A program made the position numbers. A DNA stretch of 64,000 nucleotides from an uncultured Verrucomicrobiae bacterium (lineage in GTDB: Bacteria; Verrucomicrobiota; Verrucomicrobiia; Chthoniobacterales; UBA10450), in contig CAWFGO010000001.1 in the NCBI GenBank assembly GCA_963815455.1, positions 224,001 through 288,000 of the forward strand, written 5' to 3'. Positions 39,001-51,000 of this stretch are shown piece by piece. How positions within the stretch are numbered: position 1 is the stretch's first letter; each line of letters opens with the position of its first letter.

Positions 39001-42000
39001 GGGCGCGTTCGAGATCGCGGGTCGTTTGCTCGCGCACCGCCAATGCCTGGTCGAGCTTCGCCTGAATCTCGCGGGCATCGAGCTGGACGAGCAAATCGCC
39101 CGCCCTGACCTGCTGCCCGGGCGCGACCAGCAGCTTCTCGATTCGTCCGCTGACCTTTGCCTCGATCACCGCTCGCAGCTTGGGCTGCACGGTGCCGACA
39201 ACTTCCTCGCTCGAAGTCCGCGCCTTATCCGTCACCGCCGCGACGCGGACTGTGGCCGGTGGCAGTGACTCGGGCGCGGTTTCCTTTTTCGAATGACACG
39301 CGGCCAGCGCGAGGACAGCCACGACGATGACGAGCGAGCGCGGGAACTTCATCAGCGCCTAGTGTGGCGCAGCGCCGCACTCCTCGCCAGTCCGGCCGAC
39401 GCCAAGCTTGAGGAGAATGCGCTCGAGCGGGCAGAAGCCGGTGAAGGCCGTCTGAAATAAATTCAGCCCGACAAACGCCGAGAGGAGCAACCAGAGTTGG
39501 TTGACCCAGACCCCGAGGGCGAGCCCGGTGAGCACGAGCGTGCCGGCGACGAGATAAATGATCCGTTGTATTTTCATAGTGCGGTGAAACTCTTCATGAG
39601 ATTTCCTTTACACTAATCCTCATTGTTCCAACCGGATCACGCTTTGCATCGATTGTCCAAAGCTCACCGTTTGTTGCGACCGGACCGTGTTCGACCGCTT
39701 CCGTCCGTTAAATCCCCGCTGGCGACCGCAGTATCGTGTCACCCGGTGCCGGTTCGGAATTAGGATTTTTGCCCACGAAGCACACGAATCACGATTCGTC
39801 ATTCCGAGCGCAGTCGAGGAATCCCGTGGCGTTACCTTGAAGGTGCTTCCGCGGGATCCTTCGACTCCGCTGTGCTTCGCTCAGGATGACAGAATCTAAA
39901 AAGTTCGCGTCAATTCGTGCTTGCCCCGCTGTAGCCTTGGCGAAGGCGGGTGTTTCGTGGGCCGTTCTCTTCTCAGCTCGCGTAATCCGCAACCGCCTTA
40001 GCTACGTCGAGTGTGGAAGCTTTGCCACCCATGTCGTAGGTGCGGACTTTGCCTTCTGCGATGACGCGGGCGATGGCGGCTTCCAGACGAGTGGCCATTT
40101 CGGTTTCTTTGAGCCAATCGAGCATTAGCTTCGCGGTTAACAACATCGCGATTGGATTGACTTTGTATTGACCCGCATATTTCGGCGCCGATCCATGCGT
40201 CGGTTCGAAGACGGCGTAGTTGTCGCCGAGATTGGCGCTGGGCGCGAAGCCGAGTCCGCCGACCAGGCCGGCGCACAAATCGCTGACGATGTCGCCGAAC
40301 ATGTTTTCCGCGACAAGCACGGAATAATCCTGGGGATTCTTGAACATCCACATGCAGATGGCGTCGATGTTGGCGTCATCCGCGCGAATATCGGGATAAC
40401 CTTTGGCGACTTCTTTGAAGCAGCGCATCATCAGACCGCCGGTTTCCCGGAGCACATTGGGTTTCTCGATCAGGGTGACGCGTTTGCGGCCGGTTTTCTT
40501 GGCGAACTCGAACGCTTGTTTGCAAATGCTCGTACACCCTTGCTTGCTCATGATCCGAGTGGAGAGCGCAATGTTCTCCAAGCCCGCTTTGTCTTTCCAC
40601 TTCTTCATCTTCGGGTTCGCGCACAGCGCGGTGTAAACCGGCTCCGGCAACGGGAAAAATTCCACGCCGCCGTACATGCCTTCGGTGTTTTCACGAAACA
40701 CGACCTGATCGATCGGGACATCTTCACCGCCCGGGTTCGTGATCTTGTTTCCGCGAAAGTTCAGTGGATTGCCGGGGTAACTTTTGCACGGCCGCATGTT
40801 GGTGTGCAGGTTGAACATCTGGCGCAGACCTACAATGGGCGAAAAATAGACGAGGCCTTTGTCCTTCAATTCCGGCGCCAATTCTTCCTTGGCTTCCGAT
40901 TGCGGTTTGCTGGTGATCGCGCCAAACAGTCCGCATGTCGTTTCCTTCAATGCCTTCACTGTGCGATCTGGCAATGCGTTGCCTTCCTTGCACCAAAATT
41001 CCCAACCGATGTCGCAAGGGATGTATTCGGCGTCGAGTTTCAGCCGATCCAACACGAGGCGCGTCGCCTCCATGACATCGTTGCCCACTCCGTCGCCGGG
41101 CATCCACGCAATCTTATATTTCGCCATAAGGTCCCGACTTTATCGAGGAGCCTCGCTGCCTGCAAGTCGCGGCGTCCAGACTAACCGCGGATTTGGCGGA
41201 TAACGCGGGAATGATCCTGGGGAGCACAGGCTGCTAGCCTGTGGGCGACGGCTGCCAGCCGTCGCAGACTTTGTGCATGCGAAGCATCATCTCGGCAAGC
41301 TGCCGAGATGGACAGGCTGGCAGCCTGTGCTCCCCGGATGAAGACGGGATTATTTCGCGCGAAGCCGCGCGGCGACCAGATTTTCCGCGCCGCCGGCCAC
41401 GATCAATTCCTGCGCGGCGGGAGACCAACAGATTCCAATCCGGCGGCGGATGTTCAAGTCGACGCTATCGATTCGACTTGAACGAATGTCGCCCAGCGGT
41501 CATGGCATGCCCGTGCCCAGACGTGCTTTCACCTGGGAAACGTCACTGGCGTTGACCGTGCCATTGACATTCACGTCCATCGGGAAGTTCGCGCTCGTCA
41601 CCAGCTGACCAAGTTGTGCTTTGGTTTGTGCGACGTCGGATGCGCTGACCATCTTGTTGCCATTGGTGTCGCCGATCAGCACACCCATGTTCACCAACGT
41701 AATCGGCAATACTTGTGCGAGGACATCCGTGACATTGCTGAGTTCAATCGTGAGCGTTTGCGCGTTGAGGACGCCGGTCAGGTTCACAGTCATTGTGTTG
41801 CCGGCGAAGATGGGAGTGCCCAAAACGTCGCCTTCGCCGCTTTCCACACGGGCGCTACCGCTGACGATTTCGCTGCTAAAGGTAAAGACGAGGGTGTGCG
41901 CACCGCCACTACTTCGGCATTCTACGCCTGGTTCACCAGTGAGCGGAAGATTGACATCAAAAGTCCCAGCGTCTCCGTGGGTCTTTCGCGAGACTGCCGA

Positions 42001-48000: not shown

Positions 48001-51000
48001 CGTCCCACACTGGGACGCGGTCCGGCACTAGAACGGTAAGTTTAATTCCTGCTTCAATCGCAGAAATGGCGGCGTCTTTCACACCCGCCGCCGGCACAAA
48101 AAGCACGGAGATGTCGATGTTACCCAACGCCTTCACCGCTTCCTGCGGTGTGTTAAACACCGGTACGCCTAGCACGTTCTGCCCGCCTTTACCCGGCGTT
48201 ACACCGGCGACCACATTCGTTCCGTACTCGCGCATCAAACGCGTCCGGGCCTGACCTTCCCGCCCCGTGATGCCTTGCACCAACACCCGCTTGGTCTCGT
48301 CGATCAAAATTGCCATCAGCGCGCTCCTTCCGCTGTTTGACGACCCCGAAGGCTTTCGGGGCCAATCAATTCATCCAAGCCGGGAATATCCAACTCCAAA
48401 TAGAACCCTTCGATATCGCCAAGCCGACACTCGACATCGCACGCCAGCAATTCGGAATCCTTGTTGGCAAATTCTTCGCTCGGCAATGAACCAGCAGGTT
48501 TTCCGTTTCGATCGACAATTAATCCGCCCGAGTTTGTCTCGACCGCGCGTCGAATCTCGGACCACTTCCCTGTGTCGATCCAAACGCGACCGCCTTTCAC
48601 TGGAAACGTCGTGGCCGATTTATCCCTAACGAACTTCGGCACGCGCGGCTTCCTCGGTTTCCATTTGGTGCCGCCCGCGTTTGCCACAAGTTTGGAAAAG
48701 CGATCGGCAATGAAGGCCGGCGTATCGGTTTTTCGATAGCCTTCAACCGGCGCGCGAAGGAGCTTCGACATGCGATCCAAAATTTCCACGGCACGATCTT
48801 CCGCGTTGCCACCCAAGCGAATGACTGCGGGAATATCGAGATCGAGTTCCCAAAACGCTTTGGCCAATCCATAGGCGGACCAATATTGTTCCTGACTGGC
48901 CACGCCCGAACCCGAACCGAAATATCCGATGAGGTCGGGCTGTGCCAGGATAATGCGAGCGGCGCGATACACCTTGGACGCGGACGGATTGCCACTGGTG
49001 TCTGTAAAATTCGCAATGGTGAATCCCGCGTTTACGATCGCGTCCATCGACATCATCGATCCCCCGCCGCCGGCACCATGAAAACCGGCCAGGCCTTTGG
49101 AATCCTTCGGCGCTGCCGTGGCCAACTGCGCGAAATAAAAGGTGCCGCGATGATCGGCTTGTTCGGCGGCATAAGCTACCCGTTCCAGAGAAGTGGGCGG
49201 ATGATCGAACTCGCGCGCAATCTCGATCTTCAGTTCCGGATGTCGCGCCACCGCGTAATCGTCAATCGTAATCCGGCAATCGGCGGCAACGAACTGTCCG
49301 TCCTTGGTCAGCACCAGTGGATTGATTTCCAGCGACCGCGCTTCCACGCTGCGCGCGGCGGCAAAAAGTTTTCGAATCGAATCGGCGAGTTGCTTTGCAA
49401 GCGACTTCGAAAGCCCGCATGAAGCAACGGCTTCCTCCAGCGCCGAATCCGTCGGCCCGTCTTTTGCAGCGCACGGAATTCGACGCGTCGAGGCCGCGCG
49501 CTCTTCGATCCCGCTCCCGCCGCCGGCCGCGAAAATAATCACCGGCGCCCGGGCGGCGTCGTCAATAGCGAAGGAAAGGAAGAATTCGCGGTCGATGTCG
49601 ATCTTCTCTTCCACAAGCACGGCTTCGACCGGGAACTGCCCAACTTTCATCGACAGCATGCGATCTGCGTTCGCGCGGATTTCCTCCGGCTTCTTGGCGA
49701 ATGCCACACCGCCGATTCCCGCGCGACCAGTTGTCCAAGCCTGGATCTTGATCACGACTTCGCCGCCGATTTCCTTCGCAGCCGTTACGGCTTCATTGGC
49801 GCTCGAGGCGGCGCGTCCTCGCGGAATCTGGAATCCGTTAGCAGCAAGAATCGCTTTACCTTGATATTCGTGAAGTCGCGCCATGCCCGGTGCTATTTCC
49901 ATGATCCTGGCGAAATTTCAATTGGCCCGTGCACGCGTCGCGCGGTCCCCGCCCAAACGCTTGGCCAAGCGATGTCGATCCTGTTGATTGAAAATGACAA
50001 ACAGAATAGGTTCGGGGCCACGACACCACAGGGATCAATGCCTGATCCTTAATTGCAAAATATGAGCCAAATGAACTGGGACGCGATCAGTGCGATCTCG
50101 CAACTGATTGGCTCGATCGCGGTGGTTCTCTCGGTCCTTTATCTCGCCTTTCAGGTGCATCAAAGTACGCGGGTGGCAAAGCTGGCCGCGCAGGACGCCG
50201 CGGCCACATCGCTGCGCGAAGTGACAAGTCCGTTAGCTCAGAATGCCGAACTGGCCCGAGTGTGGCGAAGAGGGCTGGAAGATTTGCAATCGCTGCCGGC
50301 GGAGGAGCAGGCCCGCTTTTTTCACACTTGCTATCAATTTCTCAAGGCGTTCGAGACGATCCATTTCCACCATGTCCATGGCGTGATGGACGAGCAGATC
50401 TGGCAGGGATGGTGCGGTCTTCTCCAGCACTATATCGCTTCTCCGGGAATGGAGTATTACTGGAAACTGCGCCAGGATCTGTTCTCGGCACGGTTTCGGC
50501 AATTTATTCAGCAGCTCGAACGTCCGGCTGAGGTACTCACGGTGGGCAATTTGTTGGGGCTAGAGACTCGCTAGGCGAAGCGGAGGGACATGCTTCCGCA
50601 TGTCCAGGACGCGCGGAAGCGCGTCCCTCCGAATTCATGCCAAGCGCTTCCGGATGACAGAGCAAAGAGATCAGCTAAGTTAATTGAGTATGAACGACGT
50701 TTACATTCTCGGCGGCGGGCGGACGGATTTTAAGCGCAATCTGAAAAAGGAAGGCAAAACCATCCGGCACTTGATCACCGAAGCCGGCAAGCTGGCGATC
50801 GATGATTCTAAGATCGATCCGGGCGAAATTCAGGCGGGCGCGGTCGGCAATTTCAATTCAGGTCAATTCACCAAGCAATTGCAGTTGGGCGCATTCATTC
50901 CGGAGATCGATCCGAAATTGCGCGGGATTCCCACGATGCACACGGAAGCGGCCTGCGCGTCGGGTGCGCTCTCGGTCTTGTTGGGCGCGCAATGGATCAT

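Follow-up and report, generated by a model that had tools for sequence, protein, structure and literature searches.

The closest described relatives of the enzyme pair considered here are the citryl-CoA synthetase CcsAB and lyase Ccl of Hydrogenobacter thermophilus (CCS, 6hxq; 6hxp) and the ATP-citrate lyase AclBA of Chlorobium limicola (ACL, 6hxj). With both, the pair shares an ATP-grasp beta subunit, a phospho-His alpha subunit and a citrate-synthase-fold lyase with the catalytic motifs, and with the second also a two-subunit composition in which alpha and lyase are fused, as in AclA. ACL-type reactions are near equilibrium, and the ANxT and RR motifs of ACL and CCS beta subunits are presumably the citrate binders. 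One report places Asn346, Thr348 and Arg379 in the citrate-motif region by inhibitor docking only (PMC13670275).

Other genes of the locus recall further pathways. The homoaconitase equivalog and a Lys12-like substrate helix are those of the fungal alpha-aminoadipate pathway (Lys20/21, Lys4, Lys12); however, the module has an ATP-linked citrate-synthase-fold lyase and a PrpD paralog instead of a LeuA-fold homocitrate synthase, its dehydrogenase has an NADP-type loop, LysX is missing from a host that makes lysine through diaminopimelate (DAP), and the reverse direction is proposed. As in the 2-methylcitrate cycle (PrpC, PrpD, AcnB, PrpB), a PrpD-type dehydratase and an aconitase-family hydratase would act on the product of a citrate-synthase-fold enzyme, but here PrpD is paired with a dehydrogenase and not a lyase, and the host has its own prpDBC cluster. 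HglS/YdcJ (DUF1338) turns 2-oxoadipate into 2-oxoglutarate as end product, and the substrate and end product proposed for the module are identical. The module, which at the lysine-catabolic locus trades places with a gene that is perhaps HglS-like, would differ in being carboxylating and O2-independent, in spending ATP and NADPH, and in also yielding acetyl-CoA.

Results

The window analyzed is a stretch of 64,000 nucleotides from an uncultured Verrucomicrobiae bacterium (Table 1). The survey's finding had described ACL-like beta, alpha-lyase, homoaconitase-like and isopropylmalate dehydrogenase (IPMDH)-like ORFs, and all four are present, open and intact, on the minus strand. It had also allowed that the neighbours might be unrelated. 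Our comparison of 80 close and 80 distant related loci contradicts this, as the gene order is retained in both groups and the association is, therefore, not due to chance.

Table 1. Coordinates of the features within the window.
Position	Strand	Feature	Basis or remark
4010..5503	+	L-lysine 6-transaminase	TIGR03251, 569.7 vs 520.8
5601..7148	+	L-piperideine-6-carboxylate (P6C) dehydrogenase, makes 2-aminoadipate	NF050084, 787 vs 730
7454..8746	-	Acyl-CoA dehydrogenase (perhaps for glutaryl-CoA)	No model cut-off reached
9019..10515	-	MmgE/PrpD paralog, sixth core gene, putative (S)-homocitrate dehydratase	
39973..41127	-	Homoisocitrate-dehydrogenase (HICDH)-like enzyme	Iso_dh; substrate helix and cofactor motifs
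41500..43413	-	Choice-of-anchor-L/dockerin exported protein	Insertion, outside module
43420..45402	-	Fungal-type single-chain homoaconitase	TIGR00139 above cut-off
45488..46087	-	HD-domain protein, variant (AD in place of HD)	Conserved; lies between the lyase and hydratase genes
46233..46520	-	Small DUF6958 protein, a variable passenger	16/80 close, 0/80 distant loci
46523..48316	-	SCS-alpha-like domain fused to citryl-CoA-lyase domain, 597 aa	NCBIfam, PDB
48316..49902	-	CCS/SCS-beta-like ATP-grasp subunit, 528 aa	ATP-grasp_2 and PDB matches
50684..51925	+	Thiolase-fold protein (PRK06289-like), divergent neighbour	30/80 close, 0/80 distant loci

The beta subunit, which likely starts at Met7, carries an ATP-grasp_2 domain (aa 9-197), and in a PDB search its residues 9-377 matched SCS-beta, 6hxq_B and 6hxj_A. 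It has the motifs PPT..DHRG, GGGGS and ANFTD.GNP in common with CCS but lacks the ANxT and RR motifs found in both the CCS of H. thermophilus and the ACL of C. limicola: where 6hxq reads GTANNT and VRRNGP, and 6hxj AIANFT and VRRGGP, its family-specific acid-binding loop reads GSGVASQEQ (aa 331) and IRLGGN (aa 361). A further difference from CCS and ACL is a tail (approximately aa 425-505) that is degenerate ferredoxin-like, with two Cys remaining. This tail is the C-terminal extension to which the survey had assigned a Citrate_bind (PF16114) match; the match, a weak one (26 bits, cut-off 26.8), lies instead at aa 276-320. In a quick unrooted IQ-TREE analysis of 78 rows, none of them a characterized ACL, the family was separated from the ANxT-type and SCS rows (SH-aLRT 98).

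Residues 1-301 of the fusion protein are SucD-like, with a phospho-His motif, FSHAGA, at aa 256, and the PDB matches include 2yv2 (E 4e-74) and 6hxp (E 8e-57). The lyase domain scored 263 against a cut-off of 212 with the citryl-CoA lyase model NF004869, and the catalytic motifs DHG, HGGA, G.GHR, DPR, NVDGA and R.PG are common to it and 6hxp. An SCS-like beta subunit and an alpha subunit with a phospho-His loop are thus combined as in ACL and CCS, in agreement with the survey's assignment of an ATP-dependent CoA-ligase and citryl-CoA-lyase-type module. The subunits do not reach the SCS equivalog scores (beta, best NCBIfam model SucC, 204 vs 370; alpha, 264 vs 336) and lack the FGGI loop, whereas the host's own SucC and SucD score 554 and 444. 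The alpha start overlaps the beta stop. Most distant relatives encode alpha and lyase as two genes, so the fusion seems to have arisen independently of that in AclA. Judged by sequence, the ACL-like pair is probably a family of its own, with the lyase residues kept, the citrate-loop motifs absent and a ferredoxin-like tail.

The homoaconitase scored 739 with the equivalog TIGR00139 (cut-off 529.9) and carries the three-Cys cluster motifs. The HICDH-like enzyme reached no family cut-off (best model AksF2, 333 vs 540; LEU3_arch, 284 vs 410). The top four PDB matches of its N-terminal half are homoisocitrate dehydrogenases, and those of the full-length protein include isocitrate dehydrogenases (ICDHs). 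Its substrate helix, YFSPIVGLR, matches that of HICDH (S. pombe Lys12, YSSPIVALR) and not that of IPMDH, and the Asn of ICDH (SINVAMR or SLNVALR) is missing. Next to Val99, on its C-terminal side, 10 of 19 close copies and most distant ones have Arg or Lys, which could admit isocitrate. The cofactor motifs are HGSAPKYAG and TYD, as compared with HGSAPDIAG and TPD in Thermus HICDH. KY was found in all 22 close and all 14 distant copies, and KY/TYD also in the host's own NADP-ICDH. By its motifs the loop is of the NADP type, and the NAD-type loop of Thermus HICDH is absent. Homocitrate, which the survey had named as a candidate substrate, stands as one.

Co-occurrence was surveyed in 111 genomes of the Chthoniobacterales family; kin are not independent, so that p values overstate the significance. 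About half (53) carry the ACL-like beta gene. It occurs with the HICDH-like gene in 47 (6 beta only, 2 HICDH-like only, 56 neither) and with the PrpD paralog in 49 (4 beta only, 3 PrpD only, 55 neither), and all 49 genomes with the homoaconitase also have beta. The PrpD paralog, a putative functional partner outside the cluster span and 30 kb off in this window, is the final operon gene in many relatives and is only about 33% identical to PrpD of the host's prpDBC cluster. It lies within 5 kb of the lysine 6-transaminase gene in 42 of 43 same-contig cases, and at loci L204, L205, L215 and L219 the complete operon stands tail-to-tail with both lysine genes, which were assigned by family cut-offs. 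Malate synthase was not anticorrelated with the module (36/17/31/27, p 0.13, n=111), so this comparison does not show that C5 units are needed.

The position that follows the lysine-catabolic genes can be taken by an unnamed 466-aa protein, X (P0294, outside this window; at least 6442 relatives). Module and X were found together in one of the 111 genomes, the module only in 55, X only in 37 and neither in 18, and the exclusion persists within six mixed genera. X follows the P6C dehydrogenase gene in 15 of the 20 module-negative loci fetched and in 0 of 16 positive ones. Canonical HglS was found in 0 of 111 family genomes, and X had no Pfam (PF07063 included), NCBIfam or PDB match. Its motif order is colinear with HglS, which it weakly resembles (hhalign with the best profiles, E 0.0026, probability 11%; single sequences gave nothing); that X is an HglS-like enzyme is unproven.

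In the host genome (approximately 90% complete), canonical SucC, SucD, two citrate-synthase-II genes and NADP-ICDH are found elsewhere, as the survey had reported, together with PrpB. The KorA-type and PFOR-type genes that it listed are present by POR_N matches, and a NiFe hydrogenase was likewise not found there (1 of 5 genomes). DapF and LysA are present, and lysine is made via DAP. Homocitrate synthase was not found, the sole HMGL-fold gene being HMG-CoA-lyase-like; LysX was above its cut-off in 0 of 5 genomes, and the saccharopine domain gave weak generic matches only. Among PFOR, OGOR and a low-potential electron source, the genes sought in carriers as marks of a reductive cycle, TIGR02176-type PFOR was found in 17 of 53 carriers (5 of 58 non-carriers). 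Genomes that lack the module have a KorA-type gene as well (5 of 5 tested).

Discussion

We propose that the module, of six genes, probably clears the 2-oxoadipate that arises in lysine degradation by running the initial half of the aminoadipate pathway in reverse. After the transaminase and P6C dehydrogenase, some aminotransferase (the host has eight class I/II candidates) would convert 2-aminoadipate to 2-oxoadipate, which the HICDH-like enzyme would carboxylate with NADPH to homoisocitrate. Homoaconitase would dehydrate this to cis-homoaconitate, and the PrpD paralog would hydrate the latter to (S)-homocitrate. With ATP, and via phospho-His, the alpha/beta pair would form homocitryl-CoA, which the lyase domain would split into acetyl-CoA and 2-oxoglutarate. 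The net reaction would be 2-oxoadipate + CO2 + NADPH + ATP + CoA to 2-oxoglutarate + acetyl-CoA. All six carbons would be retained with no O2 requirement, and the 2-oxoglutarate consumed by the transaminases would be regenerated. The direction of flux is our inference. According to one paper, aconitases dehydrate the oxaloacetate-derived arm, whereas PrpD-made 2-methylaconitate requires water loss on the acyl-CoA-derived arm (PMC5690661); the latter would be the geometry that a citrate-synthase-fold lyase demands for homocitrate.

Some observations run against the lysine reading. Most of the 18 genomes with neither system have the lysine transaminase, and a cheaper route through SucA and acyl-CoA dehydrogenases is available in 5 of 5 genomes tested; the acyl-CoA dehydrogenase at the lysine locus would serve such a competing decarboxylative route. 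In the 80 distant loci no lysine transaminase was found, PrpD occurs in only 5, and there are other contexts (UbiD, ribosylhydrolase).

The identical gene set would also fit the forward direction, in which an ADP-forming (ATP-yielding) homocitrate synthase would supply the homoaconitase and the dehydrogenase and so lead to 2-oxoadipate or 2-aminoadipate for biosynthesis, chain elongation or glutaryl-CoA oxidation. We think that this is unlikely, given the DAP genes, the absence of LysX, the NADP-type loop, a P6C dehydrogenase that already provides 2-aminoadipate, and the exclusion with a lysine-catabolic operon gene, which indicates consumption. The near-equilibrium of ACL-type reactions is in its favor, as are the acyl-CoA dehydrogenases flanking the module, a distant operon (L085) that ends with E1-alpha/beta dehydrogenase genes, and three further ones (L117, L143 and L144) that adjoin 2-oxoacid:ferredoxin oxidoreductase genes.

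Linkage to lysine genes, exclusion with X and the HICDH-like helix also make another tricarboxylate or 2-oxoacid substrate rather improbable, such as an exogenous soil tricarboxylate or one of a leucine-type isopropylmalate route. In favor of such a substrate, LeuA, LeuB and LeuC were not found in the host genome, unrelated catabolic operons (L112) contain relatives of the ligase/lyase trio, and the variant HD protein is unexplained; against it, the module-free genome G300 too has a single HMGL-fold gene.

There is a slim chance that the genes are a divergent citrate set (ACL/CCS, aconitase and NADP-ICDH) through which a heterotroph would connect citrate with acetyl-CoA and 2-oxoglutarate, as the motifs shared with CCS, the fully conserved lyase site, the ICDH matches and the Arg/Lys variant would allow. 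However, the citrate-loop motifs differ, as does the position in the quick tree, canonical enzymes are present, a citrate route could do without its own homoaconitase, an additional PrpD and a dehydrogenase lacking the Asn, and the lysine-gene link is left unexplained. The survey's complete reductive TCA route, a CO2-fixing cycle completed by a true ATP-citrate lyase, is barely credible despite the ACL-like architecture, the KorA- and PFOR-type genes and the PFOR enrichment in carriers, since 36 of 53 carriers lack that PFOR, KorA-type genes also occur where the module is missing, no hydrogenase was found in the host, the citrate motifs are absent, the neighbouring genes encode homocitrate-series enzymes, the module tracks lysine-catabolic genes, and a published Ca. 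Udaeobacter MAG (PMC7343977) was interpreted as heterotrophic, with a TCA cycle that runs oxidatively and a glyoxylate bypass.

We lean slightly toward regarding the lysine route as an undescribed, O2-independent and CO2-incorporating catabolism in one of the most abundant groups of soil bacteria, in which a new enzyme, an ATP-homocitrate lyase from an ancient sister family of ACL with a ferredoxin-like tail, would act on (S)-homocitrate and could be swapped for an HglS-like oxygenase. If so, lysine degradation would gain a new ending, the ACL/citrate synthase superfamily a new activity, fungal-type homoaconitase a bacterial context, and X, a second large unnamed family, a testable substrate; 53 of 111 sampled genomes of a dominant soil family would have a heterotrophic CO2-incorporating step. 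It would also be a warning that ACL- and CCL-like matches in metagenomes do not mark the reductive TCA cycle.

As for the remaining genes, the choice-of-anchor-L gene occurs in 0 of 80 related loci, and a link of the thiolase-fold protein to the module is unproven. The cluster also includes the conserved variant HD protein, which, as a guess, is most likely a metabolite-repair hydrolase.

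Results

The survey's finding had singled out four genes beside the canonical tricarboxylic acid cycle genes of the G000 genome (3.6 Mb, 90% complete), and all four are present as intact ORFs, with SucC, SucD, the citrate synthases and NADP-ICDH, as well as PrpB, encoded at other places. The 660-aa protein passed the homoaconitase equivalog model (739 against 529.9), and the citryl-CoA lyase part of the 597-aa alpha-lyase protein was above its cut-off; the SucD-like part of that protein and the SucC-like 528-aa beta protein scored below theirs. No family model was passed by the 384-aa dehydrogenase, for which AksF2 was best. 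The HD protein of the module matched no PDB sequence, and its best match by fold was the HD domain of YhaM (Z 15.3, rmsd 3.1, 166 aligned). The HD-motif His is replaced by Ala in G000 and in most aligned relatives, being retained in 6 of 20. A promoter and terminator scan gave signals no better than chance. As listed in the table, several genes of this genome are spread over more than one reading frame, which is probably due to long-read indel errors.

Coordinates of individual features (positions without a prefix count along the window, C1:224001-288000)
Feature	Position	Strand	Remark
PrpD paralog	9019-10515		adjoins acyl-CoA dehydrogenase, P6C dehydrogenase and lysine 6-transaminase
About nine co-oriented paralogs	11183-27023		'ELKRRNVYKVA'-type N-terminus, long membrane-anchored proteins; lie between PrpD/lysine genes and remaining module
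HD protein	45488-46087		
M16 peptidase genes	57644-58252/55593-57584		split over several frames
Split IcmF-like B12 mutase/MeaB and SDR	C1:335267-339104		G000, outside the window
AcnA	C1:821947-824824		G000, several frames
SucA	C5:48901-51614		G000, several frames
X (P0294), 466 aa	L198:5880-7280	-	follows lysine transaminase and P6C dehydrogenase; not in G000
PrpD fragment	L184:5987-6562		beside P6C dehydrogenase; module-negative genome G303
Ligase/lyase pair in sugar operon	L112:4313-17361		ABC sugar-transporter, ADP-ribosylglycohydrolase and GH4 genes

Gene order was constant in the close loci, the best 80 of 177 relatives (beta subunits 78-88% identical), whose record titles are nearly all Chthoniobacterales, Spartobacteria, Verrucomicrobia or Ca. 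Udaeobacter. The alpha-lyase gene was found in 74 of them, the HD gene in 37, homoaconitase in 32 (one weak, 26%) and the dehydrogenase in 26, many of these loci being short or containing the alpha/beta pair alone. Eighty distant metagenome loci (beta 43-53% identical, 34-74% GC) contained alpha in 73 cases, HD in 20, an aconitase-family gene in 20, the dehydrogenase in 17 (one weak), PrpD in 5 and lysine transaminase in none; here alpha and lyase are mostly two ORFs (clusters of ~301 and ~258 aa). The beta gene occurred in 2/301 genomes of a phylum sample, both from the Chthoniobacterales family studied, and in 53/111 genomes of the family sample. Within the latter, all 49 homoaconitase carriers also have beta, and beta, dehydrogenase and the PrpD paralog occur together in 45 of the 57 genomes having any of them.

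Some distant loci differ in their surroundings. The ligase/lyase trio is followed by a UbiD-family decarboxylase, not by homoaconitase genes, in L103, L114, L120, L121, L123, L127, L134 and L139, and the pair in L112 lies in an operon that implies another substrate context. L095, L116, L129, L150, L151 and L154 have two aconitase-family hydratases with PrpD not nearby; one of the two may replace PrpD in these operons.

Comparison of sequences showed that the catalytic motifs known from Ccl of H. thermophilus are retained in the lyase domain, and that the alpha domain still has its motif for the phospho-His. The beta subunit shares the CCS-type motifs flanking a loop, and the loop itself reads ASQEQ and IRLGGN, in contrast to ANNT or ANFT and VRR in CCS (6hxq) and C. 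limicola ACL (6hxj), motifs that we take to be citrate-binding. In a quick tree of 78 beta-type rows (full-length hits, three close relatives and G000 SucC, with fragments dropped), a branch with SH-aLRT 98 split the beta family from SCS and the ANxT-type rows. We rely on the topology of this tree alone, as P0001, P0006, P0035, P0121 and P0123 carried a wrong ANxT label. The AlphaFold model of beta, which is confident (pLDDT 91), matched SCS, ACL and CCS about equally over aa 8-411. Searches of plasmids returned nothing, or SCS/malate-CoA ligases only.

The beta tail fell outside the rows aligned by Foldseek and VIA-align, and an Atlas search gave no match to it. It contains 8-10 Cys in a two-cluster ferredoxin pattern in 60/60 distant copies counted and 1-3 in 119/119 close copies (2 in G000), so that the cluster sites look lost in the close lineage. 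Since every Fer4 Pfam match in relatives' tails was below the cut-off, the ferredoxin call is based on the Cys pattern.

The P6C dehydrogenase and lysine 6-transaminase in the window each exceeded their own cut-off. PrpD and the lysine transaminase occur together in 48 genomes, share a contig in 43 cases and lie within 5 kb of each other in 42 of these; the transaminase is found in 100/111 family genomes, and half of the 111 have the module. Among the transaminase carriers we picked genomes with long contigs, 20 of the 51 without beta and 16 of the 49 with it, and compared their transaminase regions. Protein X follows P6C dehydrogenase in 15/20 negatives (13 within 300 bp) and 0/16 positives, whereas PrpD is present at the region in 16/16 positives and, as a fragment only, in one negative, G303, suggesting that this genome recently lost the module. 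X was found in 38/111 family genomes and neither X nor module in 18; the overlap is G399 alone (350 contigs, 4% contamination). Kinship among genomes inflates these statistics. One X-only genome, G308, is unpublished, and the X-only count without it is 36. Both states are present within six genera.

X has at least 6442 relatives, and annotation searches (Pfam, NCBIfam, PDB) returned none for it. A short DUF1338 protein has motifs that are colinear with the invariant NHDHHT, HHLE and HLENL..R..GFKGFN of X. The match to HglS-like profiles was weak (E 0.0026, probability 11%); among the top 150 of 10217, a profile check placed 12 real copies and no reversed ones, and BLAST, hmmsearch and single-sequence hhalign gave no significant support for relatedness to HglS. 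X is possibly an HglS-like Fe(II) oxygenase. HglS converts 2-oxoadipate towards 2-oxoglutarate, which would also be the product of the proposed module. Canonical HglS, considered as an alternative route, was found in 0/111 family genomes.

Discussion

With moderate confidence, we regard the module as most likely a reverse homocitrate route, which would dispose of 2-oxoadipate derived from lysine. On stereochemical grounds, the citrate-synthase-fold lyase should act on (S)-homocitrate and aconitase-family enzymes on the (R) form, and this would explain the presence of PrpD in the module. One study states that aconitases work on the oxaloacetate-derived arm and that the PrpD product requires the acyl-derived arm (PMC5690661). 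Counting against the lysine reading are the distant copies without a lysine link, some of which lie in other operons. SucA, present in 5/5 genomes tested and frameshifted in G000, offers another route.

The dehydrogenase helix SPIVGLR is like that of homoisocitrate dehydrogenase from S. pombe, and the Asn of ICDH is missing from it. Many relatives carry Arg or Lys at the residue after the Val of this helix, which makes isocitrate a possible substrate too. The cofactor loop has KY in 22/22 close and 14/14 distant copies, as does G000's own NADP-ICDH and unlike Thermus HICDH. NADPH use would favour carboxylation, by analogy with animal cells, in which reductive 2-oxoglutarate carboxylation operates together with ACL.

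A role in lysine biosynthesis can be set aside because DapF and LysA are present in 5/5 genomes tested, LysX in 0/5, and each has a single HMGL-fold gene, that of G000 being HMG-CoA-lyase-like. Nor is a role in leucine synthesis favoured. LeuA-, LeuB- and LeuC-type genes were looked for in the 90%-complete G000 genome and none was found, consistent with leucine auxotrophy. An anticorrelation of malate synthase with the module, hinted at by five genomes, was refuted on 111, and its absence weighs against the lysine reading.

The complete reductive TCA route that the survey had proposed is not supported, as fused PFOR is missing in 36/53 module carriers, even though it is commoner there (17/53) than in non-carriers (5/58), and the KorA-type genes cited in its support occur in non-carriers too. 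We likewise found no NiFe hydrogenase in G000. A report on a Ca. Udaeobacter MAG describes a TCA cycle running oxidatively, with a glyoxylate bypass, and the uptake of amino acids (PMC7343977). The module is real and conserved, and it is no marker of reductive TCA.

Searches of literature outside subscription journals found no description of homocitrate lyase, of homocitrate with citryl-CoA lyase, of homoaconitase with ATP citrate lyase, or of homoaconitase/HICDH in lysine degradation, and nothing on Udaeobacter with lysine and citrate lyase. PMC3917532 and PMC11964587 are, in their accessible parts, unrelated to a homocitrate-cleaving citryl-CoA lyase. CCS/CCL has been reported in many non-autotrophs, with homocitrate unmentioned in the accessible part of that preprint, the supplement of which may list the module's family (bioRxiv 2022.10.25.513756).

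Split IcmF-like B12 mutase/MeaB genes, together with SDR and thiolase genes, adjoin the module in 11-15 close loci (e.g. L030, L048 and L017).
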